This document shows positions 2,611 to 49,388 of a stretch of DNA of 52,050 nucleotides, in pieces. Made by a program: the position numbers and the translations under genes. The notes beneath the pieces are model-generated. The model ran no database searches, had not been told where the DNA came from, and saw only the letters and a program-made list of their open reading frames with translations. This stretch comes from an uncultured Pseudomonadales bacterium (GTDB taxonomy: Bacteria > Patescibacteriota > Microgenomatia > UBA1400 > MFAQ01), in NCBI GenBank assembly GCA_964487665.1, contig CAZARR010000006.1, positions 1 to 52,050 of the forward strand. The letters run 5' to 3'. Within the stretch, counting starts at the first letter, position 1; each line of letters starts with the position of its first letter.

Positions 2611-3453
2611 CTATTTATTTTTAAGCGGAATGATTTTGGGGTCGCCGTCCAGGTTGAGAACGCTGACCAACTGGCCGGTGGTGGGCATGACAAACTTGGC
2701 AGAGCCATCACCCAAAACTTTTTCACTGACCTCAAGGGTTTTCAATTGGGCCGCGCGCTGAGTAAAGTTTTTTTCAGCGGCTTTGGCGACCATTTCGATC
2801 GATTTGGCTCGGGCGTCGGCATTAAGAAGTGTTGCCTGCGCTTCACCTTCGGCTTCGAGAATGGCTGCTTCGCGAATTCCCTCTGCCTCGAGAATACGAG
2901 CGCGTTTTTCGCGTTCCGCTTTCATCTGTCGGCTCATAGCGTCGGTGATGTCTGCTGGTGGGTCAATTTTTTTCAGCTCGACCTTGGTGACCTTGACCCC
3001 CCAAGCGTTAGTTGATTCATCGAGAACTGCACGCAGGTTGTCGTTGATACTATCGCGTGCTGTCAGAGTTTCATCGAGTTGTTTATCGCCGATCAGGTTT
3101 CGCAGATTTGTTTGAGCTAGGGTGGTAGCAGCGTAATCAAAGTCCTCGATTTCGAATTCAGCTTTGACCGGGTCGACCACTTTGTAATAGATAACAGCAT
3201 CAACGATTACCGATACGTTGTCTTTGGTGATTACCTGTTGAGGTTCGACGTTCATCACTTGCTCGCGCATGTCAACTAGTATCAACTGGTCAACAAAAGG
3301 AACTAAGAAAATTAGGCCAGAGTCGGTGGTGGAATGGTATTTGCCCAAACGAATTATCAAACCTTTTTCAAATTGACGGACTATGCGCACACTGCGAGCC
3401 AGGGCGACAAAAGAGATAAAGAAGATGATAAGCAGAACGGTGGAGCTGAACAT
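2611..3453 (-). CDS. SPFH/band-7 (stomatin-like) membrane protein
   Basis: N-terminal TM, VITKDNVSV, AQTNLRNLIG, WGVKVTKVE, MKAEREKRA coiled coil. Confidence 0.93.
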   Translation of the reverse strand: MFSSTVLLIIFFISFVALARSVRIVRQFEKGLIIRLGKYHSTTDSGLIFLVPFVDQLILVDMREQVMNVEPQQVITKDNVSVIVDAVIYYKVVDPVKAEFEIEDFDYAATTLAQTNLRNLIGDKQLDETLTARDSINDNLRAVLDESTNAWGVKVTKVELKKIDPPADITDAMSRQMKAEREKRARILEAEGIREAAILEAEGEAQATLLNADARAKSIEMVAKAAEKNFTQRAAQLKTLEVSEKVLGDGSAKFVMPTTGQLVSVLNLDGDPKIIPLKNK

Positions 3454-3455
3454 AG

Positions 3456-3896
3456 TTATTTGTCTTTTGGTAATTTTTTAACTCGTAGCGTGACGCCTTC
3501 GATTGAGACCACTTCAATCTTGTCTTTTTCGTAGAGCAAGTCATCCGAGGTGGCGCGCCAGTCTTCGTCATCAAGGCGGACTAGACCGGCGGTGCTGGGG
3601 GTGATAGAACGAACTACAATTCCAGTTTTGCCTAGCAACTTATCTATATTAGTTTTGTGGGTGAGAACAATCAGTTGTTTTTTGATCCGGGTCCGGCCTA
3701 GGGCGATGTAGAGGAAACAAAGAACAGAAGCAGCTACTATTGCCAGTGGTTCATTTTCGAAAAACAATCCAATTGCTCCGCCAACTAGTAGGGTGGTGCC
3801 AATGAGTACCAGGTCAAAACCAGTGGAGAAGCCGGCGAATAGCTCGGCCAGGATGAGCAGCAAACCGACAATGATCAGAATCTGTGTCGGGTTCAT
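3456..3896 (-). CDS. NfeD family short membrane protein
   Basis: 3 TM segments plus C-terminal G.VRLDDEDWRA...VVSIEGVTLRV OB-fold; paired with SPFH. Confidence 0.9.
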   Translation of the reverse strand: MNPTQILIIVGLLLILAELFAGFSTGFDLVLIGTTLLVGGAIGLFFENEPLAIVAASVLCFLYIALGRTRIKKQLIVLTHKTNIDKLLGKTGIVVRSITPSTAGLVRLDDEDWRATSDDLLYEKDKIEVVSIEGVTLRVKKLPKDK

Positions 3897-4753: not shown

Positions 4754-5644
4754 CTAAATTGGGCGAGGGTGTGGGGTGCGGTGAATTTTTTGTAGTTTCG
4801 ACTGTTCGTTTATTAGCCTTGCCTCGGAACCGTTTACTAGTTTTTTCTTGTCTTGGCTAACCAGTAGAACAAATGTTCTAAATAACTCGAGCCATTGTGC
4901 AAAAGTGATTTGGGTCGGAGTAGCCAAAGGTAAAAATTGATTGTCAGCGGCGAGACGCGCAAATTGTTTTGGGGTAAAGATGTGCTTAAGGCCACTTTTG
5001 ACATTGGGAATGGAGTGGGTAAATGCATAAGAGACAAAATCTCTAAACAAATGTTTTTCATTTTTGGAAAGCAGGGGTGTTGGACGTTGGGCGATTTTGA
5101 ACAAAACAACTTGAACATTGGGGACGGGTTCAAAGTCAGTTGGGCTAAATCGGTGCACAATGTCAAAGTCGAACCAGGGCTTGTGTAGTACCGAAAAGAG
5201 AGTTTCGTGACCCAGGGGGCCTCCGGAAAACTTCGTAGCAGCTTCTTGCTGCATTAGTAAATAGCTATCTATTGGTGGGGTGGGGGCGTTAAGAAGCTTC
5301 CTTACGATATCAGAGGTGATGTTAAACGGGATATTTGAAAAAACTTTATACCTAGTGTTGGGCAAATTGAAGATTAGAAAATTTTCTCTAACAATATTGG
5401 TGTTCTTATTTTCTTTGAATTTGTTAACTAGAATTAAAAATAGCTTGGGATCTGCTTCAATGGCGATTACATGTTTGCATCTTTTAACCAAGACAGAGGT
5501 AATTGTGCCTTTACCTGGACCAATTTCTACTACAAAGTCGTCCTTCCCAATGGTTGACTCATCAATAATTTTATCTATCGTAGTTGGATTTACTAGGAAA
5601 TTTTGCGATAGTGAAATGCTTTCCCGCGGAAATTTTAGTGACAC
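4754..5644 (-). CDS. Erm-like 23S rRNA adenine-N6 methyltransferase (RrnaAD family)
   Basis: SQNFL, EIGPGKG, IEAD, SNIPFNIT motifs; C-terminal HIFTPKQF...ITFAQWLELF is Erm-like and lacks the KsgA RRK tail; start reassigned to GTG 5644, 9 nt below TATAAT. Confidence 0.8.
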   Translation of the reverse strand: MSLKFPRESISLSQNFLVNPTTIDKIIDESTIGKDDFVVEIGPGKGTITSVLVKRCKHVIAIEADPKLFLILVNKFKENKNTNIVRENFLIFNLPNTRYKVFSNIPFNITSDIVRKLLNAPTPPIDSYLLMQQEAATKFSGGPLGHETLFSVLHKPWFDFDIVHRFSPTDFEPVPNVQVVLFKIAQRPTPLLSKNEKHLFRDFVSYAFTHSIPNVKSGLKHIFTPKQFARLAADNQFLPLATPTQITFAQWLELFRTFVLLVSQDKKKLVNGSEARLINEQSKLQKIHRTPHPRPI

Positions 5645-16412: not shown

Positions 16413-16486
16413 TGGCAGGCCTGCCAGGACTCGAACCTGGAAGAAGGGTTTTGGAGACCCTCATGATACCGTTTCATCACAGGCCT
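16413..16486 (-). tRNA. trnW: tRNA-Trp (CCA)
   Basis: AGGCCTG/CAGGCCT acceptor, CT-CCA-AA loop, GGTTCGAGTCC T-arm, encoded CCA. Confidence 0.96.
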
Positions 16487-16570
16487 ACGGTGAGCTTATT
16501 TTATCGCAATTCTTTTGAGAAGTCCCTGATAGTTAGAACCGAGTGGAGACCATCAGGTGTGCCCTGCTAA

Positions 16571-16744
16571 TTACTTTAGTTTGGCCGACTCTTTGTGTGG
16601 GGTGTGTTTGCGGCACTTGCGACAGTACTTGTTTAGTTCAAGCTTGTCTGGGGTGTTGGTCTTGTTGCGTTCACTTAGATAATTGAAGTTGTTGCATACA
16701 GTACATTTGAGACCGATGTTTTGTCGGGGACCTTTTTTTGCCAT
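16571..16744 (-). CDS. rpmG: 50S ribosomal protein bL33 (Zn-binding form), not in the ORF track
   Basis: Hand translation MAKKGPRQNIGLKCTVCNNFNYLSERNKTNTPDKLELNKYCRKCRKHTPHKESAKLK*. Confidence 0.97.
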   Translation of the reverse strand: MAKKGPRQNIGLKCTVCNNFNYLSERNKTNTPDKLELNKYCRKCRKHTPHKESAKLK

Positions 16745-16811
16745 AGCGTGGGATATTTTAGCATCAAGGAAAGAGTGTGGCTAGTGTAAAATTGGGTGTT
16801 GTAGCTCTTAA

Positions 16812-16885
16812 GCCACCCTAGCTCAGCTGGCTAGAGCACCTGTTTTGTAAACAGGGGGTCTTGGGTTCGAATCCCAAGGGTGGCT
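16812..16885 (+). tRNA. trnT: tRNA-Thr (UGU)
   Basis: GCCACCC/GGGTGGC acceptor, TT-TGT-AA loop; CCA not encoded. Confidence 0.96.
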
Positions 16886-17529
16886 CACTTAATTCGACGA
16901 AACCAATCGTCTTGACCGAGTAACCATTGCTTGAGCTGGTAGATCGAGTAGAGGCCTATTGAATAGTGTTTCTGGTCATATGGATTTAATGAAAATCGTA
17001 GGAGTTCTTCTCCTGTATCTATAAAGGTTCCCTGTGGTCCGATTCCTTTCTTGGTATATGCCCAACTTGATCCTAAATCCCACCAGCCGAATTGTTGGTG
17101 GTTATTATTGGTGTTGGCTCTGTTGACCAAGGCTTGGTAGATACGTGCAAATTCAGCGAATCCAGCAAGCAGATAATTTCTGAAATGGTCTTCTTCGTTA
17201 CCCCAAGATTCCCAACTGCGACGGGCAATTAACATCGCCTGAACCGCCCCGTACCATACGTTGGGTTCAAGTCCATAATCATTGGGTTCTTTAGCTTTAA
17301 GTCTTATTCCCCCTGGGTCGCTAAACCATTGATAATCCTTATCCACAGCAAGTGGTGGCATTCCTCCCCATATACAATAGAACCTCAAGGTATCTATGCT
17401 TGGTCCAGGACCTTTACCTTTATGTAAAAGTGCCAGATGGTATAAAAATTCTCTTTGACCGGGATATCGGTAAAAGCCGAACTCATGTCTGGGCATTTCA
17501 TACATGTCTACAAGCTCAGGGCGTCTCAT
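16885..17529 (-). CDS. Hypothetical protein
   Basis: 214-aa aromatic-rich ORF convergent on tRNA-Thr. Confidence 0.65.
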   Translation of the reverse strand: MRRPELVDMYEMPRHEFGFYRYPGQREFLYHLALLHKGKGPGPSIDTLRFYCIWGGMPPLAVDKDYQWFSDPGGIRLKAKEPNDYGLEPNVWYGAVQAMLIARRSWESWGNEEDHFRNYLLAGFAEFARIYQALVNRANTNNNHQQFGWWDLGSSWAYTKKGIGPQGTFIDTGEELLRFSLNPYDQKHYSIGLYSIYQLKQWLLGQDDWFRRIK

Positions 17530-17635
17530 ATGTATCTAAATTTCGTGAATTATATTACTGTGCTAGAAAAATGCTATATTTTGATCCGGTAAAGTTAGGG
17601 GATAACTGATTGTGGCTATCTTGCCATTCTAAGGG

Positions 17636-17718
17636 TGCTGGAGGCAGGATTCGAACCTGCGAAGGCGTAAGCCAACAGATTTACAGTCTGTCCCCGTTGA
17701 CCACTTGGGTACCCCAGC
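17636..17718 (-). tRNA. trnY: tRNA-Tyr (GUA)
   Basis: CT-GTA-AA loop, long variable arm, GGTTCGAATCC; CCA not encoded. Confidence 0.96.
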
Positions 17719-17761
17719 AGAGACAGTGATGATTTTAGCAGGAAAAACGCCAGTAGTTGAT

Positions 17762-17974
17762 CTACTTTTTTTTATTGGTACTCGACTCGGAGCCAGATGA
17801 TTGTTTGCCGTCAAAAAAGTCTCCTACCAAGTTCCAAGTGCCTTTAACAAGTAAGACAATTAACCCAAAAATAATAGCATCACCAAGGCAGCCGTCGGGT
17901 GGGGTGCTATCATCGCCTTCGTGTCGCGTATTCAGCGGTACAATTTCTCCTCGAAGAAGTTCAGTGGGAATCAT
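17762..17974 (-). CDS. Small single-TM hypothetical protein (70 aa)
   Basis: TTGACA-18-TATAGT-7-ATG at 17974; one hydrophobic segment. Confidence 0.5.
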   Translation of the reverse strand: MIPTELLRGEIVPLNTRHEGDDSTPPDGCLGDAIIFGLIVLLVKGTWNLVGDFFDGKQSSGSESSTNKKK

Positions 17975-18014
17975 GGCGCGTACTATATACACCCTATAGT
18001 GTATTTGTCAAGTG

Positions 18015-18090
18015 TGGAGCCGATGTTGGGAATCGAACCCAAGACCTCGTTCTTACCAAGAACGCGCTCTGCCAACTGAGCTACATCGGC
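18015..18090 (-). tRNA. trnT: tRNA-Thr (GGU)
   Basis: GCCGATG/CATCGGC acceptor, TT-GGT-AA loop, encoded CCA. Confidence 0.97.
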
Positions 18091-25980: not shown

Positions 25981-26763
25981 ATGAAAAAAACAATTCTGTC
26001 TACCCAACAAAGCGCCCTTCTTGAGGATTTAATCGTCAAGTATGGCCAGATTGTCACTTCCGAGCAGATCTATGCCCAAGGAAAGGACGTGTGGGATCAA
26101 CAAGTGGCTAAAAACGTTGTAACCAGGCTCACTCGCAATGGGTGGCTGATTCGGGTAAAGCGCGGCTTATATGCTATTTCTGATCTAAGCAACCGCGGGT
26201 TTTTGTCTCTCTCGCCCTCTGTAGTGGCCCATCTTCTGGTTCGTGACTCCTACGTCTCTTTTGAGTCAGCTTTGGCTTATCACGGCATGTTTGACCAGCT
26301 TACCAACAAAACTATCTCTATTTCTCAGGTTCAACATAAGTCAGTTCAACTGCAATCAGTTGAGTACAGCTTTGTGAAAGTGCTGGACAAGTGGTTTTTT
26401 GGTTGGGAAGAGGTGGGTATTGATAATAAGACGGTGCGGATGGCCACTGCCGAAAAAGCCTTAATTGACATGATCCAGTTCCATAAAAGTAAATACACCG
26501 TTGATTTAGTGGTGGAAAAGCTCTCTTTGTATAAAGGCTCACTTGACCTACAAAAAATGATTGAGTACTTGGGCAAGATGTCTTTGGCCACCATTAAGAC
26601 ATTTGGTTTCCTGTTTGACCTTTTAGGGATTGATTCTGGTGATATTTATAATCAAGTTAAGTTGAAAGGCACCCACTTGATGTTTTCTGGAGATGCCAAG
26701 TTTAACCCCAAGTGGCGACTCTATTACGACGAATACTTTGATAAATATCAGTCAGTCAAATAG
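25981..26763 (+). CDS. abiEi: Type IV TA antitoxin AbiEi family
   Basis: N-terminal wHTH (LTRNGWLIRVKRGLY), YVSFESALAYHG, ATAEKALID. Confidence 0.88.
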   Translation: MKKTILSTQQSALLEDLIVKYGQIVTSEQIYAQGKDVWDQQVAKNVVTRLTRNGWLIRVKRGLYAISDLSNRGFLSLSPSVVAHLLVRDSYVSFESALAYHGMFDQLTNKTISISQVQHKSVQLQSVEYSFVKVLDKWFFGWEEVGIDNKTVRMATAEKALIDMIQFHKSKYTVDLVVEKLSLYKGSLDLQKMIEYLGKMSLATIKTFGFLFDLLGIDSGDIYNQVKLKGTHLMFSGDAKFNPKWRLYYDEYFDKYQSVK

Positions 26764-26768
26764 TCCCT

Positions 26769-27527
26769 ATGCTTACAAGGCAACAACTCGAAATCATCAA
26801 TCGTAAAAGCTTGCGTTATCCCTTACACATTGCCGAAAAGGATTATTTTCTGGCTCTGGTCATGCAGATTATCGCGGCTTCCTCGACTGGCAAAACTCTT
26901 ATTTTCAAGGGTGGCACCGCCTTGCATCACTGTTACTTGGACCAGTACCGTTTTTCTGAGGACTTGGACTTTTCTTCGAACAAAACGCCATTACCTATCG
27001 AAGATGTGCATAAGATCTTTGAAACAACCGATTATTTGAGTATCAAGAAGGACTATCTTTCCAATGCCACCATCAAACTCGAGAAACTCCAATACACCGG
27101 ACCATTAATCCAGCCCAACTCTCTGAAAGTTGAAATTGATTTCTTGCAAAACGTTTTACTGCCTCCTCGAACCTTGGCTTATCACAACGTTTGGGGTGTG
27201 GATTTTATGGTGGTCGTCATGGATATCAAAGAAATCTGTGCCGAGAAAATCCGAGCTATGAGCGATCGGGCTCGTTACCGTGATTTCTACGATATCTACT
27301 TACTTTTGGAAAAGTACCAGTTGGACTTGGGTGAAATTGTTTCCTATGTTAAGCAAAAAGAGGTCCGTCGACCAATTACCAAAGCCAGCATCCAAACCAA
27401 CTGGCAGGTGATTGCTACCGAAAAAAAGCAGGAAATGGGTCAGATTTACTACTCCAAGCAGGTTGAGGATAGTCAGATGGAAGCACTAATTAAAAGTCTA
27501 CCTTTTGATAGTATTATGGCTGCTTAA
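26769..27527 (+). CDS. abiEii: Type IV TA toxin AbiEii nucleotidyltransferase
   Basis: AEKDY, FKGGTAL, RFSEDLDF, EKIRA...RYRDFYDI. Confidence 0.92.
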   Translation: MLTRQQLEIINRKSLRYPLHIAEKDYFLALVMQIIAASSTGKTLIFKGGTALHHCYLDQYRFSEDLDFSSNKTPLPIEDVHKIFETTDYLSIKKDYLSNATIKLEKLQYTGPLIQPNSLKVEIDFLQNVLLPPRTLAYHNVWGVDFMVVVMDIKEICAEKIRAMSDRARYRDFYDIYLLLEKYQLDLGEIVSYVKQKEVRRPITKASIQTNWQVIATEKKQEMGQIYYSKQVEDSQMEALIKSLPFDSIMAA

Positions 27528-27636: not shown

Positions 27637-28494
27637 TTATAAACCGCCCAGGCCGCCGTGATATGGGTGGGTGAGGTTTCTGGCTTTGGCTTTCTTGGCT
27701 CGGGCTGAACTTGCCTGGTCTGACACTGCGATCTGGTTGAGCACACCTTGTAGACTTTGGTCTGGATCTGTCCAGGTGAGTCCGGTGACTACCCAGATGG
27801 GGTTTACCCCACCACCCTGTCTTCCGCCTTTGCTAAGGGTCGCATATCTGAGCATATGGAGGACGAAGCCCGGTGCTTCGCCTTTGGCAATTTGGGCGGC
27901 CAAGGCGTTCTGGCCGATTATCCCTTCTAGCTCTAGTACCTCGAAAGGTGTCTTTAGTAGTACGCCTGGTCCGGTTATGGATCGGAGATCTGTCTTGAGA
28001 GGTGAGCCAGCTGCATTGTTGAAATCAATTAACTCTGAGGCTGGTACTAACCTGTGACTGCTCGGACCCACTTTGACCCGTCGGATGTCGCGTGACGGGA
28101 GACCGGTCCGGTCGTGGGGGTTGGTTTCCCAGACCTGTGGCATTCCACTCCTAGAGCGTGGGCACTGATGCAGAAGAGTGATGATTCTCTGAACGCTATC
28201 GGGATTGTGAGGAATTTGGAGCCAATCTAGTGCTTGCGCAACTATGCCCGCCAAGTCGGGAAGTTCCAGAACTGCTCTTGCCAGAAGAGCTTCGTTGGCC
28301 CGTGCCAAAACTTCCGTGGCCACTTTGATACCATTTTTGGGAGGATCAGGGTTGGTGAGCTCCCCCAGGGGGAGGGCTATGGTACGGCCGTCGGGACTGG
28401 TTACTGTGGAGATTGGTGCGAACGCAACTTCCTGCCTGGCAACAGGGCCTGTTCTGGCTTCTAAATGGGGTTCGTCTGCGCCTGCTTCAGGCAT
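27637..28494 (-). CDS. Hypothetical protein
   Basis: 285-aa ORF, no recognised motif. Confidence 0.65.
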   Translation of the reverse strand: MPEAGADEPHLEARTGPVARQEVAFAPISTVTSPDGRTIALPLGELTNPDPPKNGIKVATEVLARANEALLARAVLELPDLAGIVAQALDWLQIPHNPDSVQRIITLLHQCPRSRSGMPQVWETNPHDRTGLPSRDIRRVKVGPSSHRLVPASELIDFNNAAGSPLKTDLRSITGPGVLLKTPFEVLELEGIIGQNALAAQIAKGEAPGFVLHMLRYATLSKGGRQGGGVNPIWVVTGLTWTDPDQSLQGVLNQIAVSDQASSARAKKAKARNLTHPYHGGLGGL

Positions 28495-28589
28495 TTTGGC
28501 AATTAAGAGATTTAAATCTGTATCGTGATTTGTAGATATTGTATCATAGTTTATATATTAGAAATCGTTGGGTAGAATTGGTGAAGTTT

Positions 28590-29684
28590 ATGCAACAAAG
28601 TGATATGGGTGAAGACACCCTTAGGTTTGTGGTCACAGAGGGGGATACAATTTATCAGGAGCCTCGGGGGGTGGCAAACGGTGTGGCTGTTGTGGCATAC
28701 GGGTTGCGAGATTCAGAGGCGGAAAAATCTGCCCTGGCGGTTCGTGAAGAGCCGGGATTGGAGTGGTTCGGTAATGCCGGTGCGGCCATTGCAGAAAACA
28801 GTGGTGTCTACTTGCCGGGGGTCAACGACGAATTTGGCGAAGATGATGGTGATCTAGTACAAATACCGGGAGGATATAAATTAATGTTGATGCCGCCAGT
28901 AGGTGATGTGAGAGACAATCAGTTCCCGGTTACGTTTGCGGTAAGGGATCGAAGGGTCGACTGTCTCTTGGATTTGGCTCAGGCGGCCAGCCAGTTTCCT
29001 AAAAAGCCTGAGAGTATCAGTTTAGAAAGTACGGATTCAATTTTGGGTTATTTTGATGGAATTGACAGGCTGGTAAAAGCATCGCCAGGTGTCGAAGGAG
29101 ATCGTCTTAAATTGAGATTGATGCGGGAACTCGAGTGGGTATGGGCGAGTTTGGGAGAGAAGAATAGGTTGGGTCATTTGGACAAAGTAATGACTGAAAT
29201 TTTGGGCCAGCCGGATCATTTAGATATTGGACGCACAACACTACAAGGATGGACAGATTGGGCGCGTGATGGCACAAAGGGCGGGATGGGGGAACTTCTG
29301 GGAGATGTGCACGGCGTCTTCCACTATTGGGCGGCTGAATTGGTCGTGAGGGAAGTAATGAAACTGGTCGAGAGTGAGTTGGAACCGTTGGTTCAGACTG
29401 AGGAAAAGAAGGTCTATGAAGGCAAAGTATTGACGACTTTGGGCCCTATTTTTACTAGGTTGACAGAGACTATCGCGGCTGACGATAGGGTGACTGCGGC
29501 GATATTGTTTCCTTTGGCTAGGGAACTTGACCGGTATGGAGATGGGGTCGCTTTTTGGGTTAATCAAGGGGGTTTTGTTGCAGGGGCAGAAGTGCGAGAG
29601 TATTGGAGCCGTTGGGGGCTGGATTTGTCTGATGTGCAAGCAGAGAGCTGGGTTGGTGAGCCCCCCGAGGATAAATTTTTCTAA
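28590..29684 (+). CDS. Hypothetical acidic protein
   Basis: Long ORF; likely ATG 28590 downstream of TAGAAT. Confidence 0.65.
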   Translation: MQQSDMGEDTLRFVVTEGDTIYQEPRGVANGVAVVAYGLRDSEAEKSALAVREEPGLEWFGNAGAAIAENSGVYLPGVNDEFGEDDGDLVQIPGGYKLMLMPPVGDVRDNQFPVTFAVRDRRVDCLLDLAQAASQFPKKPESISLESTDSILGYFDGIDRLVKASPGVEGDRLKLRLMRELEWVWASLGEKNRLGHLDKVMTEILGQPDHLDIGRTTLQGWTDWARDGTKGGMGELLGDVHGVFHYWAAELVVREVMKLVESELEPLVQTEEKKVYEGKVLTTLGPIFTRLTETIAADDRVTAAILFPLARELDRYGDGVAFWVNQGGFVAGAEVREYWSRWGLDLSDVQAESWVGEPPEDKFF

Positions 29685-29710
29685 AAGATTAATTTTTGGT
29701 TTTACAGCTG

Positions 29711-29748
29711 AAGCCGAGAACGAGATGTGAAATCCCCGTCCTCGGCTT
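29711..29748 (-). terminator. Long hairpin downstream of the GC-rich gene (terminator-like, no clear U-tract)
   Basis: Minus strand AAGCCGAG GACGGGGAT TTCAC ATCTCGTT CTCGGCTT folds with G-U pairs. Confidence 0.5.
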
Positions 29749-29755
29749 CTGGCCG

Positions 29756-30931
29756 CTAAAACGCGGCGAAAACGAAAACGAGCCCGGCGCCGCCGCCCGT
29801 GAGGGCGACGACGCCGACGAAAACGAGGACGCCGGCGGTCACGAGGCCGGCGACCTCGAAGTCAGAAAGCTCCCGAAGGGCCTCGGGGACGAAGATGCTC
29901 CCGGCACGCACCGACCCCTCGGGGGGGGTCGTAAAGATGGGGAACGGTGCCGGTTCGGGGACCGGCACGAATCGGGAGTTGTTGTGGTACTCTCGGTCGG
30001 CCAAGGCCCGCGCCTCGGCCCACTCCCCCGTCGTTGTCGGTTTGTTTTTCTGGAGGCACTGGAAAAACTCCAGCACCTCCTTGCTTGCGGGGTTTCTTTT
30101 GGTGGCGCCGCGAAGTTCGCGGGCCACGCGATCCGCGGGGGCATCGAACGCTGTCGGCGGGGCCCCGATCCCCGTCAACAGCAGGATATGAACCCCCTTT
30201 ACGGTGATTTTCATCACCGTTCGGGTTCCTCCTCCCCGGGTGGCGTAAATGTCAACGCCGTAGGCGGCGGCTGCCGCCACGGCTTCCTCGATCAGGGGGT
30301 AGACGTCCTCTGGGCGTCTACCTCGAACGTGGGCCCAGAAGGCTTTCGCCAACTGGCCCGCCGGGCAGTAGCCCGGCATGATTGTTGTTCCCAGGCTCAC
30401 CACGGTGACGGGGTCACCGGGGTTGAACCCCCAATCCCGGAGGTCGTCCGGGTCGGCCGGCTGGGGTGTCCCCAGCGGGGGGGTGGGCAGGGGGACCGCG
30501 ACGGGGGCGAGGGTGGTGGGGGTGGGTGCATCCGCTCCCTCGAAACGGATGCACCAGAACAGGAACCACTCGACGCAGACGCGTCCTGTGGTTTCGGCGG
30601 TTGTCTGCGCTGCTGCCGGAGCGGCGGTGGGTGGCTCGGGGGGCCGCTCTGGTTGTGGGGGAACGGCCGTGGGGGCCGCGGTGCCCCCGGCAGTTTCCGT
30701 CTCGTTGCTGGCCGGGGCGCTCAGGGCACAGGAGCCCTTCACCACCCAGGCCAGGGGGAGGCCCGTTGTTTTTTTGCAGGAACTGGAGCACAACAGGCTC
30801 CGGCCCTGCGAGTCGGTGGCGGCCTGCCCGCGCGTTTGGCACGCGACGGGCGAGTCCGCCGAAGCGGCGGTCGGCAGCCCTCCGAAGAGGACCGCCGTGA
30901 TCAAAAATACTACGACTAACTTGCTGCGCAT
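29756..30931 (-). CDS. GC-rich exported protein: signal peptide, Cys-containing domain, Pro/Thr linkers, C-terminal hydrophobic anchor
   Basis: AGGAGG 6 nt before ATG 30931; MRSKLVVVFLITAVLFGG...ASA signal; 44/60 G+C at 29761-29820 by hand count. Confidence 0.7.
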   Translation of the reverse strand: MRSKLVVVFLITAVLFGGLPTAASADSPVACQTRGQAATDSQGRSLLCSSSCKKTTGLPLAWVVKGSCALSAPASNETETAGGTAAPTAVPPQPERPPEPPTAAPAAAQTTAETTGRVCVEWFLFWCIRFEGADAPTPTTLAPVAVPLPTPPLGTPQPADPDDLRDWGFNPGDPVTVVSLGTTIMPGYCPAGQLAKAFWAHVRGRRPEDVYPLIEEAVAAAAAYGVDIYATRGGGTRTVMKITVKGVHILLLTGIGAPPTAFDAPADRVARELRGATKRNPASKEVLEFFQCLQKNKPTTTGEWAEARALADREYHNNSRFVPVPEPAPFPIFTTPPEGSVRAGSIFVPEALRELSDFEVAGLVTAGVLVFVGVVALTGGGAGLVFVFAAF

Positions 30932-31317
30932 GGTTTTCCTCCTTTGCGCATTCATGGCCCCGATGGGCCGGCGATGCCAGGTAATGTTTAGTGTCCCCCT
31001 GGTTGGGACGATAGTTTCCTGCAAGCGTAGTTGCCGCAGGCTCGAGTGGGGGTCGGGGAGACCAACCCTCTTTCGAGCCCGTGGCTAAAACACTATAGGT
31101 TTGACTACACAGTAAACTCGTTCTCGGCTTGTCAAAGTACATCCCGCACTAAGATGCGGGGTTATTTATACAAAAAAACCGTGCGGGGGATTGGCTATTG
31201 GTCAATCGGCACAGTCAGGTTGTATATGGGTATGTATTTATTACATACTTGGGGGAAAAAGTCAAGTGGAAGTTACAGGCTAGTTCCCCAGAACACTTTA
31301 GCATATTCGAACAGTCA

Positions 31318-31366
31318 AATATATTGGGGGGTTCAAGCATAAAACCATAGAATATACTGGGGGGTT
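31318..31366. repeat. 16-bp direct repeat pair with 33-bp period
   Basis: AATATATTGGGGGGTT 31318-31333 and AATATACTGGGGGGTT 31351-31366. Confidence 0.75.
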
Positions 31367-31431
31367 AAGGCCTGAAGCTCTGTCTGTGTCGCTTCGCTAA
31401 AGTCAGTTTTCTTGGGGGCTGATATTTTAGG

Positions 31432-31743
31432 CTAAAGAAGTTTGACTCCGGTTGCCTTTATTTGCTTAGCGAGCAGGTTGTTTGCGTCGTCGAAGTCACG
31501 AGGAGAGAAGGGGTGTGGCTCGATTAGCTCTGATATGTGGTGGGTAAGATGGAGTAATCGGACTCTTTCGGATTGTCTATCGTGACCAAATTGAGTCGAG
31601 ACAATACATGTGTCGATATCGCTAAAGCGATGCTGCGTCCCCCTTACGCGAGAGCCAAAAACATACGCCGATTGGACTTTGATGCCAGAATCAATAACAG
31701 CCTTGAGATATTTCTGGGCAGTAACCAGATCGGTTTTGTTCAT
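31432..31743 (-). CDS. Minimal nucleotidyltransferase (MNT)
   Basis: YVFGSRVRG...SDIDT motif. Confidence 0.9.
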   Translation of the reverse strand: MNKTDLVTAQKYLKAVIDSGIKVQSAYVFGSRVRGTQHRFSDIDTCIVSTQFGHDRQSERVRLLHLTHHISELIEPHPFSPRDFDDANNLLAKQIKATGVKLL

Positions 31744-32129
31744 ATACTCAGACTAGAAGTAAAGATTTTATAAAAGTGTTTGCACACAGCGATCCAGATG
31801 GTGGCGTATGTCTTGGTGGCCTTGTTGTGAAAGGAAAATTTGTAGTCGTCGTAACGGGCTTCAATGTTGAAGGTTTTAATTTCGTCTAATTGGTTCGTTT
31901 CATCTTCTTTTAGTTTAATTCCAGCTTGTTTTGTTAGTAAGGTGAGGTTGTGGATCCAAGGAATTTCTTTTCCAAGTTGGGCGATCCTTGCCTTTAGGGT
32001 CTTTTCCAATACTAAATGCCATAAAAACAGGCACCAATCGTATCTACCTGAGTCGAATAAAAGCATGGCCGTTTCAAGATCTGCTTTTGCGCTATCTAGC
32101 CAGTATTTTGCTTTCTCTTCGCGATTCAT
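31740..32129 (-). CDS. HEPN domain protein
   Basis: AKADLETA...YDWCLF...VLEKTLKA, IHNL, ARYDD; paired with MNT. Confidence 0.88.
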   Translation of the reverse strand: MNREEKAKYWLDSAKADLETAMLLFDSGRYDWCLFLWHLVLEKTLKARIAQLGKEIPWIHNLTLLTKQAGIKLKEDETNQLDEIKTFNIEARYDDYKFSFHNKATKTYATIWIAVCKHFYKIFTSSLSI

Positions 32130-32353
32130 CCTCGTTAATTTTATCACGACGATTTGGATAAAAAGGTCGGGGAACAGCTGTTTTTGTCCTGCCGGTAGGA
32201 CAATAATATGCTGAAATCGTCCTATGGACAGTTTTCCCAGAACACTTTTGTTGGAGTAAACGGAAAGTAAGTTGTCCGCTGTGAAAGTTAGCGCGTTGTT
32301 GTTTGACCCTCTTCTTGTGTATTGTGATCTAGTCTGGGAAAATTGGCCCGCTA

Positions 32354-46708: not shown

Positions 46709-46768
46709 AGATTGTAAATAATAAATGTTGTGATTTGAAGATAAATAGGGTTGTTGTATAATGCGCGC

Positions 46769-47338
46769 GTGGGGAAAGAGTTTAGTCCGATCGGTTTTGT
46801 ACCGTTAGAATTACGCGATCAAGAGGGTCAAGTGGTGCTGGCTGAGAAAAATTTTCCTGCTCTGGAAAAGATTATCGAGTCTGGTTTGCTGCCACCAAAA
46901 GAGATTTGGAGGTTGTTTCATGGGGTTCACAACTCAGTTTGGGGTAGTATATTTTTCCCTCATTTTCGTGTTGATACCGCATTAGACATTGTGGGAATTC
47001 GATTGTCAATGGCTTATGATGATATACGAAGAGATCGAAAACGAGCTTTACATATAGAACGCACAAATAATTATTTGGCTGCCTGCAAGCAAGCATTCGG
47101 TGCTTTTGTCTGGGTAGAGATTGGGCACGGGGGCTTTGAAAGGTTCGATGGTGAGCATAATTACGAATTTGACCTTGGTCGGATAACAGCACAAGGTTTT
47201 CGTGTTTCCGGGCCAGACAATTACAAAGAGACATTACGTTATTTTGCAGAATATAGACGCAAGATGGAAATTAAAAAAGATTTATTTACTAGATACCATC
47301 TGGCCTGGTTTTTGAATCGGTTGGCTGGTGTAAGATAG
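46769..47338 (+). CDS. Hypothetical protein
   Basis: TATAAT 6 nt before GTG 46769. Confidence 0.65.
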   Translation: MGKEFSPIGFVPLELRDQEGQVVLAEKNFPALEKIIESGLLPPKEIWRLFHGVHNSVWGSIFFPHFRVDTALDIVGIRLSMAYDDIRRDRKRALHIERTNNYLAACKQAFGAFVWVEIGHGGFERFDGEHNYEFDLGRITAQGFRVSGPDNYKETLRYFAEYRRKMEIKKDLFTRYHLAWFLNRLAGVR

Positions 47339-47345
47339 TGGTTAT

Positions 47346-47906
47346 ATGGATCAACAGATAAGAGATTCGTTGACAAGTAAGTTAGAAAAAGTTGTTGAGA
47401 TAGTTCGCGAGGACTTGGCATCGATAAGGACCAGCCGTGCAAAGCCAGATTTGCTCAGCGGGATTGATGTCATAGCCTATGGTGGACAAAAAATGAAGTT
47501 GTTTGAGCTGGCTACTATTACTGCTCCTGATAATAATATGCTGATTATTTCTCCTTGGGACAAAGGAGTAATACAGGATATTGAGAAAGCAATTACCGTC
47601 AGTAACTTGCAGTTGAACCCGACTGTAAGCGGGGATTCGATCAGGGTGGTTATACCGGCTTTGACCGAAGAAAGGCGTCGCGATTTTGTCAAATTGCTGC
47701 ACCAAAAGTTGGAAGCTGGCCGGGTAATGCTTAGGCAGGTTCGCCAGGATGTAAAGGAAGAGGTCGAGGCTAGTGAAAAAAAGGATGGGGTTAGCGAAGA
47801 CGATGTCGAAAGGGTGTTGGAACTAATGGAAAAGACGGTTCACGATTATGGGACAAAGCTGGATGAGATGGGGCGAGTGAAAGAATCAGAGATAATGCAG
47901 GTGTAG
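47346..47906 (+). CDS. frr: Ribosome recycling factor
   Basis: IRTSRA, IEKAI..SNLQLNP, PALTEERRRDFVK. Confidence 0.96.
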   Translation: MDQQIRDSLTSKLEKVVEIVREDLASIRTSRAKPDLLSGIDVIAYGGQKMKLFELATITAPDNNMLIISPWDKGVIQDIEKAITVSNLQLNPTVSGDSIRVVIPALTEERRRDFVKLLHQKLEAGRVMLRQVRQDVKEEVEASEKKDGVSEDDVERVLELMEKTVHDYGTKLDEMGRVKESEIMQV

Positions 47907-47961
47907 GGCCAAATTCGAGGTCTGGAAATTTTTTTCGAGGGATATTATAATGCAGGTTATT

Positions 47962-48003
47962 GTCCGCGGTCGCGTTATGGCGACGCGATTGGCGGACTTT
48001 TTT
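47962..48003 (+). terminator. Long hairpin plus U6 (frr terminator or attenuator of the tRNA-like locus)
   Basis: GTCCGC/GCGGAC outer and GTCGCGTT/GACGCGAT inner stems, then TTTTTT; lies just downstream of TATAAT 47946-47951. Confidence 0.6.
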
Positions 48004-48006
48004 CGT

Positions 48007-48077
48007 GAACACCAACGCCGAATGGAGGCGGCCGGGCATCGTATGCCGGTGGGCTGGTTCGATTCCAGCTGGTGTTC
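48007..48077 (+). tRNA. Non-canonical tRNA-like RNA, anticodon-position CGU (Thr-reading) with atypical acceptor stem
   Basis: GAACACCA/TGGTGTTC 8-bp acceptor, D-loop GG, AT-CGT-AT loop, GCTGG-TTCGATT-CCAGC T-arm. Confidence 0.6.
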
Positions 48078-48155
48078 CTTCCCGCGAAAGCGGGCGTGCG
48101 GGGCAAACCCGTCTGCGTGACAACGATGTACACGCGGGGGTTTGCCCCAAATTAG

Positions 48156-48233
48156 TGGGGGGTCGTCTAAACGGCCTAGGACGGGCGGGCATCTGGTTGT
48201 CTGCCTATTAGGGTTCGAATCCCTACTCCCCAG
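48156..48233 (+). tRNA. tRNA-Gln(CUG)-like RNA with elongated anticodon arm
   Basis: T1-A72, G73, AT-CTG-GT loop on a 7-bp stem with a bulge, 3-nt variable region, TAGGG-TTCGAAT-CCCTA. Confidence 0.7.
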
Positions 48234-48236
48234 TCA

Positions 48237-48280
48237 GTCCCTCCTTCGCGCCTTTGGGCGTGGGGGAGGGACATTTTCTT
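48237..48280 (+). terminator. Intrinsic terminator closing the tRNA-like locus
   Basis: 16-bp stem GTCCCTCCTTCGCGCC/GGCGTGGGGGAGGGAC followed by ATTTTCTT. Confidence 0.75.
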
Positions 48281-48302
48281 TGTGCTAGAATTACTCGAGT
48301 AA

Positions 48303-49388
48303 ATGCAGATTTTGATTTTTTTGTTGATATTGTCAGTATTGGTTTTGATTCATGAGCTAGGTCATTTTGCTGCTGCCAGGATTTTTGGTATTAATGTTGA
48401 GGAGTTTGGGATCGGCTTACCCCCTCGGGCACGAAAGTTATTCAGTCAGGGGGGGACGATTTTTAGTTTGAATTGGTTACCGATAGGTGGTTTTGTCAGG
48501 CTAAAAGGAGAAGATGTAGAAGAAGAGCTGGCGGGAAATGACGTATTTTACAAAAAGAAATTGTGGCAAAAAATGACGGTGGTTTTGGCAGGAGTAGTTA
48601 TGAACTTTTTGTTGGGGGTGGCAATTTTTGGGGCTATTTATTCGTATTTAGGAATACCGACAAAAGTTGATCGAGTACGCATTACCGAGATTGTGCCCGG
48701 TAGTCCGGCCGATGAAGCTAAAATAAAGCCTGAGACTTATGTCTTTCGATTTGTCGGACCGAGTGGGGCGGGGGTTGATGTCAAAGACACAAAGTCGTTA
48801 GTTGAACTGATTAACGAGAACAAAGGAAAAAAGATTACGTTATTGGTATCGGGTGAAAAAAATCCGCAAGAATATCAATCGGTGATGCTTGTAGCACGTG
48901 AGAATCCTCCTGCGGGGCAAGGAGCGTTGGGGGTGGTTTTGTCCGATGTGGAACTGGTCAAATATCCATGGTGGCAGATGCCTTTTCGGGGAGCAAAAAT
49001 TGGTTTATCAGAGGCCATCGCCTGGGGCAAGGAAATTGCTCAGGGTTTGGGGGGGTTGGTGGTCAGGATTTTGTCGGGCAAAGGAATTGGCTCGGACGTG
49101 GCTGGACCAATAGGAATTTATCAGGTTAGTGGGCAGGTGACCAAGTTTGGATTGCTTGCTACTTTGCAGTTTGTAGCAGTGTTGAGCATCAATTTGGCGA
49201 TATTAAACATAATGCCCTTTCCTGCCCTAGACGGCGGAAGAGGAGTGTTTATGCTACTCGAAGGGCTACTCCACAAGGATGTCCGGCGCAAGGTTGAGGC
49301 AAAAATCAATATGGTGGGTATGGCGGCACTAATTGGCCTGATGGTACTGATTACCATGAGAGATATATATAAATTGGTGGTGAAATAA
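48303..49388 (+). CDS. rseP: RIP metalloprotease RseP with PDZ domain
   Basis: IHELGH, NWLPIGGFV, GSPADEA, NIMPFPALDGGR. Confidence 0.93.
   Translation: MQILIFLLILSVLVLIHELGHFAAARIFGINVEEFGIGLPPRARKLFSQGGTIFSLNWLPIGGFVRLKGEDVEEELAGNDVFYKKKLWQKMTVVLAGVVMNFLLGVAIFGAIYSYLGIPTKVDRVRITEIVPGSPADEAKIKPETYVFRFVGPSGAGVDVKDTKSLVELINENKGKKITLLVSGEKNPQEYQSVMLVARENPPAGQGALGVVLSDVELVKYPWWQMPFRGAKIGLSEAIAWGKEIAQGLGGLVVRILSGKGIGSDVAGPIGIYQVSGQVTKFGLLATLQFVAVLSINLAILNIMPFPALDGGRGVFMLLEGLLHKDVRRKVEAKINMVGMAALIGLMVLITMRDIYKLVVK

Follow-up and report, generated by a model that had tools for sequence, protein, structure and literature searches.

A tRNA-Thr-like element behind frr in a Patescibacteria bacterium: a candidate pseudo-tRNA at a site of rapid tRNA gene turnover

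Can a transfer RNA (tRNA)-like gene whose anticodon and acceptor stem point to different amino acids still take part in translation? The question is raised by a cloverleaf, here called element 1, at 48007-48078 of a 52,050-nucleotide (nt) stretch of DNA (the window) that originates from an uncultivated Patescibacteria bacterium of the Microgenomates type. A sequence-only reading of this DNA had inferred a mistranslating, regulatory or non-translational tRNA. Based on ARAGORN, Rfam, our own covariance model R1, shuffle controls and a comparison of related loci, we lean towards the view that element 1 is a supernumerary pseudo-tRNA derived from tRNA-Thr and not a regular decoder. A non-standard, probably non-translational tRNA fits our findings, while a His-accepting mistranslator at ACG finds no support in them. 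Element 1, a second tRNA-like unit behind it, the two flanking genes and the promoter-like and hairpin features around them all lie on the forward strand.

ARAGORN calls a tRNA-Thr(cgt) at 48008-48078, and the coordinates and features of element 1 given by the sequence-only reading are correct in the sequence and in the ARAGORN fold. The acceptor stem pairs AACACCA (48008-14) with TGGTGTT (48070-76) over 7 base pairs (bp) and, as had been proposed, can be drawn with 8 bp through a possible eighth pair between G-1 (48007) and the discriminator C73 (48077); this 8-bp stem is continuous in the centroid fold. A8 and C9 (48015-16) lead into a D arm (48017-48032) with a 4-bp stem, GCCG/CGGC, and the D loop AAUGGAGG, which contains G18 and G19. 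The anticodon arm (48033-48049) has the stem CGGGC/GCCGG, with the G.G mismatch that had been described lying at 48034:48048, and the loop AUCGUAU, in which CGU, a triplet that would read ACG (Thr), occupies 48040-42 as previously assigned. The variable region, for which 2-3 nt had been claimed, is UGG (48050-52, 3 nt), and it is followed by a canonical T arm, GCUGG-UUCGAUU-CCAGC (48053-69). Of the 21 stem pairs of the ARAGORN fold, 20 are standard, and the same four arms appear in the centroid fold. The top half of a tRNA is kept in element 1 and the core is remodelled: the elbow retains the D-loop GG and the T-loop UUCGAUU (of the T54-Psi55-C56 type), and the core has A at position 8, where U is near-universal, no nucleotide 26, and a variable loop of 3 nt instead of 4-5.

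This cloverleaf is more than a chance match. ARAGORN made no tRNA call in 3000 shuffles of 47955-48285 and a single one when the whole window was shuffled 60 times with its dinucleotides preserved, and the fold z-score of element 1 is -3.1, compared with -2.2 to -3.3 for the real tRNAs of the window. Its scores as a tRNA are nevertheless weak because of A8, the missing nucleotide 26, the 3-nt variable loop and the G.G mismatch. Element 1 is absent from the results for the Rfam tRNA family (RF00005) at the gathering score of 29 bits, a search in which the four normal tRNAs of the window obtain 58-69 bits. Our model R1, which was built from tRNAs of this clade and has the Thr-CGU gene of the related locus L081 in its seed, gives element 1 only a local match of 19.9 bits; as controls, Thr tRNAs outside the seed reach 88-89 bits and the Trp and Tyr tRNAs of the window 33 bits. 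In a permissive search the top match of element 1 within the tRNA clan is tRNA-Sec, the selenocysteine tRNA (RF01852), at 29.7 bits against a threshold of 47. We rejected this assignment, since besides falling below threshold element 1 has no UCA anticodon, no long variable arm and a D stem of 4 bp, not 6. A transfer-messenger RNA (tmRNA), in one piece or two, was rejected as well (no ARAGORN call, no G3.U70, wrong size), as was a phage or viral origin: phage records match only in the generic T arm, and two patterns had no exact match in viral contigs.

The disagreement between anticodon and acceptor stem is real. The bacterial Thr identity set consists of G1-C72, C2-G71, G4-C69 and G5-C68 together with G35 and U36, and the His set of G-1 and C73, as major determinants, together with the anticodon GUG (PMC9976931). 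Element 1 has A1-U72, A2-U71, A4-U69 and C5-G68, none of the Thr acceptor determinants, and the two real Thr tRNAs of the window (16812-16885 and 18018-18090) begin GCC... and finish ...GGC-U; the earlier claim that its stem lacks the Thr determinants was right. G35 and U36 are present in its CGU. Element 1 therefore holds the anticodon part of the Thr set only and the acceptor part of the His set only, with GUG absent. The possible G-1:C73 pair is not distinctive, however, since each of the four canonical tRNAs of the window has a base -1 able to pair with its discriminator (A:U, A:U, U.G and U:A). These tRNAs lie at 16416-18090 and are Trp, Thr-UGU, Tyr and Thr-GGU, each with a TAAAAT box within 30 nt upstream. 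Among the odd tRNAs found at the frr locus of relatives, described below, -1:73 pairing is inconsistent. The His-like G-1:C73 is thus weak evidence, a local norm. As for the codon itself, the window uses ACG 102 times (6.7 per 1000 codons, 13% of Thr codons), including at universally conserved Thr residues of GlyA (THK[T]LRGPRG), MreB (DLG[T]) and a penicillin-binding protein (PBP; KTG[T], the KTGT motif). Therefore ACG is not recoded, and the statement of the sequence-only reading that there is no fixed recoding holds.

Where, then, does element 1 come from? It lies in the 396-nt gap between frr, the ribosome recycling factor gene (47346..47906; a 186-amino-acid (aa) open reading frame (ORF) whose homologues carry Pfam PF01765), and rseP, a site-2 protease gene of the Peptidase_M50 family (48303..49388; Pfam PF02163, E = 1.3e-50). 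We compared 171 loci around frr homologues, designated by L numbers, and neither element 1 nor the second unit, element 2, was found in any of them by BLAST or covariance model. In L005, L007 and L008, frr and rseP are 4-77 nt apart with nothing between. In other relatives the gap holds cargo: argS with HTH_17 (L082, L084 and L165), an antitoxin with PemK, argS and PIN (L168/L169), RNHCP (L170) and, in one JGI contig, Fic. In this lineage accessory genes, among them toxin-antitoxin genes and the gene for arginyl-tRNA synthetase, have a hot spot in the post-frr gap. In about a dozen relatives tRNA genes stand in the gap, and every one of them has a -10 box 25-30 nt upstream and is followed by a hairpin terminator. 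With the window, the set having tRNAs after frr comprises L081, L082-85, L084, L086-88, L097, L104, L106, L136 and L165-167. L081 is the closest syntenic relative, with the gene order of the window, and has four tRNAs between frr and rseP: a Phe tRNA, two aberrant Thr-like tRNAs (4872-4945 and 4955-5027), one with UGU in an 8-nt loop and the other with CGU in a 6-nt loop, and a canonical Thr-CGU (5043-5115). Element 1 therefore sits where relatives keep Thr-CGU genes, and it is a genuine tRNA-derived gene that probably arose from a Thr-CGU gene of this locus. In this Patescibacteria lineage the post-frr spot sees a fast gain, alteration and loss of tRNA and accessory genes.

The signals around element 1 differ from those of the tRNAs in relatives. 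A promoter-like site (TGGAAA, 17 nt, TATAAT; 47923..47951), matching the consensus at 10 of 12 positions in our scan, follows the frr stop and is the only promoter near element 1. Its -10 box stands at the same place after frr as in relatives, but there it precedes the tRNA by 25-30 nt, whereas element 1 begins 56 nt away, with a hairpin and T run in between. This 15-bp GC-rich hairpin (47962-47997) with TTTTTT behind it (47998-48003), present in both the minimum-free-energy and the centroid folds, finishes 4 nt upstream of element 1 and looks like a strong intrinsic terminator. Behind element 1, at a distance of 3 nt, comes a short predicted hairpin, CCCGC-GAAA-GCGGG (48081..48094), and then a long one (48100..48148) with the arms GGGGCAAACCC / GGGTTTGCCCC, an 11-nt inverted repeat (I2) of 100% complementarity, and an inner stem. 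An intrinsic terminator with a 16-bp stem followed by ATTTTCTTTG was found at 48237..48282 by terminator scan and fold. Finally, rseP has its own extended -10 box, TGcTAGAAT (48282..48290), 12 nt before its ATG at 48303, and its transcription is therefore independent of the tRNA-like units. In five relatives (L004, L006, L007, L082 and L084) TAGAAT precedes the rseP ATG by 6-10 nt, and L003 and L005 have other -10-like hexamers before rseP; boxes so near the ATG suggest leaderless or nearly leaderless mRNAs.

Strain-level data bear on how stable element 1 is. Same-species contigs from several sludge runs carry it in identical form, and among the runs only X16, a soil run, differs. The X16 contig, of low depth, is 98.7% identical over 47943-48094 (152 nt), retaining the short hairpin behind element 1, and has two substitutions, both in the anticodon arm: T>C at 48042 turns CGU into CGC, and C>T at 48047 turns a G-C pair into G.U. 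Since this near-identical sequence has CGC, the anticodon of element 1 is not fixed. The X16 sequence diverges after 48094, and in a relative about 94% identical at the rseP start a different tRNA 3' end (…CGGGGTTCGAATCCCCGCCCTCC) replaces element 2, before 48237. Therefore the units are exchanged as modules between close strains.

Element 2 (48156..48233) is a tRNA-Gln(CUG)-like unit 80 nt downstream of element 1, and both units share one 330-nt GC-rich stretch dense in hairpins. Its features include U1-A72, G73 and an intact T arm, and its Gln-type D arm carries 3 extra bases in the loop; CUG is at 48193-95, but 12 nt separate the strands of the 5-bp anticodon stem, and ARAGORN calls the unit only with its intron option. 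The segment 48200-48234 matches, with 2-7 mismatches, the 3' halves of canonical tRNA-Gln genes that belong to other organisms from the same samples; the 5' flanks of those halves read ...GGACUGCAGAUUCUGGA. Judged by these features, element 2 appears to be a damaged tRNA-Gln. A 12-mer, CGG[C/G]CGGGCATC, is common to both units (48029-48040 and 48182-48193) and occupies the same place in each, namely the end of the D stem, the 5' anticodon-stem strand and the start of the loop. It could reflect gene conversion or a common binding site.

Taken together, these results make regular decoding by element 1 unlikely: its scores are low, its core is damaged and its acceptor stem foreign, a terminator-like hairpin separates it from the promoter, its anticodon varies, a damaged tRNA-Gln lies next to it and the locus turns over rapidly. 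We propose that only read-through transcripts would contain element 1. Such transcripts could fold into the tRNA-like top half, and trimming by RNase P and RNase Z would be possible. The remodelled core and the foreign acceptor stem would make the product a poor substrate for threonyl-tRNA synthetase (ThrRS) and for the ribosome, and the reading of ACG would fall to tRNA-Thr(UGU) (16812-16885), via wobble, or to a normal CGU tRNA encoded at another place in the genome. The pseudo-tRNA would then be either decaying or retained for a non-decoding job.

Several observations weigh against this pseudo-tRNA interpretation. Element 1 has a GC content of 64%, compared with 45% for the genome, and its stem pairs are standard at all but one position, where drift would be expected in a long-abandoned pseudogene. 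Its D stem, GCCG/CGGC, is separated from the usual GCUC/GAGC by changes on both sides of the pairs, a pattern suggestive of a kept structure, and its anticodon loop is a perfect 7 nt with U33 and A37. No other tRNA with anticodon CGU, a normal Thr-CGU included, was found by ARAGORN in the 52-kb window, so that element 1 could be the genome's sole ACG-specific tRNA. The strain evidence, two substitutions in one low-depth contig, is thin. None of the RNA runs contains element 1; a single metatranscriptome includes this organism, and its contigs leave 47069-48317 uncovered. The intact stems, the high GC content and the paired D-stem changes argue against long neglect and keep a non-decoding role, or a minor role as Thr-CGU, open.

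A tentative alternative, which we consider clearly less probable than a supernumerary pseudo-tRNA, is that element 1 is a tRNA-shaped RNA kept for a non-decoding job, being a divergent member of a clade-wide group of promoter-driven tRNA bodies beside frr with conserved stems and a free anticodon loop. Such an RNA might donate aminoacyl groups to a non-ribosomal transfer, regulate or act as a decoy, or be the site that a tRNA-binding enzyme recognizes. The group itself is striking. Related genomes have about twenty distinct tRNA genes after frr, and four or five of them look normal. The others retain perfect stems. Their anticodon loops have 6, 8, 10, 11 or 15 nt, or up to about 40 nt, some 7-nt loops lack U33, and there are one 20-nt D loop, one 6-bp acceptor stem and one abnormal T arm. 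Odd tRNAs with intact stems and their own promoters lie at L082 4614-4687, L084 4611-4689, L104 3121-3194, L106 1073-1148 and 1164-1241, L136 3241-3315, L165 3264-3338, L167 3277-3347 and L170 4072-4141. No abnormal loop occurs in the Thr-GGU, Tyr, Trp and Thr-UGU genes that lie elsewhere in the window and in the loci. The bodies of most odd tRNAs score well (Rfam 52-61 bits for four of them, R1 38-78 bits). Six Thr-like post-frr tRNAs keep 99% of the pairs in their acceptor and T stems, and in nine of the pairs both bases have changed, a result that none of 500 shuffles reaches. The tRNAs of L165 and L167 have identical acceptor stems and entirely different loops, UUGUUUUAAA and AUAUUAA; the two genomes are closely related, as both their Frr proteins (P0013 and P0012) share 85-90% identity with the Frr of L082 and of L084. 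These patterns suggest that the bodies of the odd post-frr tRNAs are under selection and the loops are not.

Further unusual tRNAs occur in the related genomes. Of the tRNAs at L136 3112-3217 and L170 4147-4231, one has an intron-like insert of about 35 nt in the anticodon loop and the other a 20-nt D loop with the anticodon loop GGGGGUG. L001 has a tRNA with anticodon UCA, which would read UGA (3407-3474; 48 bits on Rfam tRNA), and another with an 8-nt anticodon loop (3534-3609); this pair adjoins a masked run of N. The tRNAs at L098 4028-4099 and L097 3095-3166 share promoter and leader, and the G3:U70 pair of alanine tRNAs is present in both. In one of them the loop is normal, with GGC, and in the other it is UAGGUUA (GGU, no U33).

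In its fullest form, which we likewise hold to be rather unlikely, this alternative states that the post-frr tRNA bodies, of which most are Thr-like and some carry the Ala pair G3:U70, have acceptor, D and T arms under purifying selection and a free anticodon loop, and that they would be charged, kept off the ribosome and used for a non-ribosomal purpose; the CGU/CGC of element 1 would reflect this freedom. In agreement with a non-decoding role, the relatives' tRNAs have their own promoters, terminators and good scores, the stems of element 1 are intact and its GC content is high, and pseudo-tRNAs with regulatory effects exist, such as tRNAOther of B. cereus (PMC3399842). However, stem covariation would be expected also of any set of real or freshly inactivated tRNAs, and it is therefore a lead and not a proof of shared function. 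Element 1 also falls outside the pattern of the odd set. It is far more divergent, with 19.9 bits against 38-78, it has no close promoter, its -10 box lying beyond the hairpin, and its normal 7-nt loop on a damaged core is the opposite of a broken loop on a sound body. No candidate partner enzyme was found among the ORFs of the window, where neither an integrase, a Fem-type transferase nor an extra synthetase turned up.

More doubtful still is that element 1 is a working, if structurally unusual, tRNA-Thr(CGU) that is charged by the organism's own ThrRS and reads ACG. This would agree with the ARAGORN call, with the loop AUCGUAU bearing G35 and U36, with the canonical T loop and the D-loop GG, with the use of ACG at conserved Thr in a window that has no other CGU tRNA, and with the Thr-CGU genes at the matching locus of L081. 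A tRNA-Thr(UGU) is usually able to read ACG by wobble rules, however, and the window has one. The near-identical strain has CGC in place of CGU, the terminator-like hairpin is directly upstream, and the score of 19.9 bits compares with 88-89 for Thr tRNAs. Together with A8, the lack of position 26, the 3-nt variable loop and the G.G mismatch, the absence of every Thr acceptor determinant (PMC9976931) speaks against efficient use as a Thr tRNA.

The lead towards His mistranslation did not hold up, and we regard it as very improbable. In that scheme RNase P would leave G-1, histidyl-tRNA synthetase (HisRS) would charge element 1 through G-1:C73, and His would be inserted at ACG. G48007 and C48077 do supply both of the major determinants of bacterial tRNA-His, even minihelices with G-1 and C73 are charged by HisRS (PMC9976931), and the 8-bp stem is continuous in the centroid fold, so that His charging of element 1 would be compatible with its sequence. 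Against this, all four canonical tRNAs could form a -1:73 pair too, element 1 lacks GUG and does not have the same anticodon in every strain, the scores are far below those of working tRNAs and the damaged core makes ribosomal use doubtful. Moreover, ACG stands at universally conserved Thr, and no dedicated synthetase or other partner is encoded nearby. Equally improbable is that there is no RNA gene at all and the cloverleaf is a by-product of clustered terminator hairpins or of a 56-aa ORF with a Shine-Dalgarno-like sequence: the region is hairpin-rich and the ORF does run over element 1, but the local shuffles gave no call, conserved tRNA bases stand in the T and D loops, overlapping ORFs have no Pfam match and relatives have tRNAs at the same locus.

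The ORF in question spans 47950-48120 and is preceded by GAGGGA; a protein-coding reading was rejected, as the ORFs overlapping element 1 are without Pfam match. Its opening, AATGCAGGTT (47949-58), resembles the rseP start, AATGCAGATT (48302-11). A target-site duplication formed by AATGCAGGTT and AATGCAGATT (repeat D5) was rejected, since by our estimate a 9/10 match is expected by chance about 2-3 times in the region and rseP has its own -10. The likeness is probably chance, or it could be a relic of an rseP start displaced by insertion.

The wider window gives the setting of these units. Contigs of this bacterium come from sludge and wastewater metagenomes, and the ribosome recycling factor closest to the Frr of the window is 65% identical; the relatives include a Collierbacteria genome. 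The genes around element 1 are frr, rseP, HIT, YqeY, YbeY and dnaX. Between tsf and frr, the slot of pyrH in many bacteria, there is a 195-aa ORF without Pfam match (46751-47338), and relatives have unannotated ORFs of about 215-290 aa in this slot. Two toxin-antitoxin-type pairs are present at 25981-27527 and 31432-32147 (AbiEi/AbiEii, and a minimal nucleotidyltransferase with HEPN). AbiEii relatives are reported to modify tRNA 3' ends. The stretch 28001-32000 has a GC content of 52-56% against a background of 45%, and none of its ORFs at 28539-29684, 29756-31024 and 31031-31342 has a Pfam match, so that the DNA here may be foreign.

What would these findings mean for annotation and for the biology of the clade? 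An annotation based on ARAGORN would list element 1 as tRNA-Thr(CGU) and inflate the tRNA set of a reduced genome, and element 1 should instead carry the label of a pseudo-tRNA or tRNA-like gene. Taken singly, element 1 is ordinary, and the interest lies mainly in the clade-wide post-frr hot spot with its sound tRNA bodies and broken anticodon loops. If selection does maintain the bodies, these symbiotic bacteria use tRNA-shaped RNAs beyond decoding; if it does not, the post-frr site is a clear case of rapid tRNA gene birth and death at a cargo hot spot.

Finally, element 1 can be set beside known systems. The nearest relative in place, the Thr-CGU of L081 (5043-5115), shares with it the locus, the anticodon in a 7-nt loop with U33 and A37, the 7/5 acceptor/T stems, the canonical T loop and the D-loop GG. 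The two differ in the acceptor strand (AACACCA in element 1, GCGCCAG/GCC... in L081), in the discriminator (C versus U), in the A8, missing nucleotide 26, 3-nt variable loop and G.G mismatch of element 1, and in score (19.9 versus 87.7 bits, the L081 gene being in the seed). Like bacterial tRNA-His, element 1 has a genome-encoded G-1 that can pair with C73, but it has CGU and not GUG, its body is unrelated, and -1:73 pairing is common to the other tRNAs of the window. In Staphylococcus, non-proteinogenic tRNA-Gly species serve as cell-wall donors and have a normal cloverleaf and anticodon loop with altered contacts to EF-Tu. These extra copies for non-ribosomal use offer a possible model for the clade-wide set, although, as stated above, no Fem-type enzyme was found in the window. 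Partial tRNA genes left by mobile-element integration (PMC9897764) are likewise low-scoring predictions where foreign genes insert, but in them one half is duplicated beside the element, whereas elements 1 and 2 each span a whole tRNA and have the two acceptor strands. A tRNA fragment from a mobile element was therefore rejected for element 1, whose two acceptor strands are present and paired and which has no integrase nearby. Allo-tRNAs, with 8/4 or 9/3 acceptor/T stems and a long variable arm (PMC7609411), were rejected too: element 1 has 7/5 (or 8/5) stems, its T stem being of 5 bp, and a 3-nt variable loop. Polycistrons of irregular tRNAs and allo-tRNAs occur in soil metatranscriptomes (Mukai et al. 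2017, reviewed in PMC7609411). The irregular tRNA polycistrons resemble our locus in their tandem irregular units, in their origin from uncultivated bacteria, in the G-1 of some units and in their obscure use, and they are not chargeable by E. coli enzymes. B. cereus tRNAOther (PMC3399842) is, like element 1, a deviant predicted tRNA beside a variable genomic region that is not expected in translation; for it a deletion phenotype and the lack of a translation role have been shown by experiment, while element 1 is known from sequence, and the two have no sequence relationship. The nearest known kinds to element 1 are pseudo-tRNAs such as tRNAOther (PMC3399842) and the irregular tRNA polycistrons (PMC7609411).

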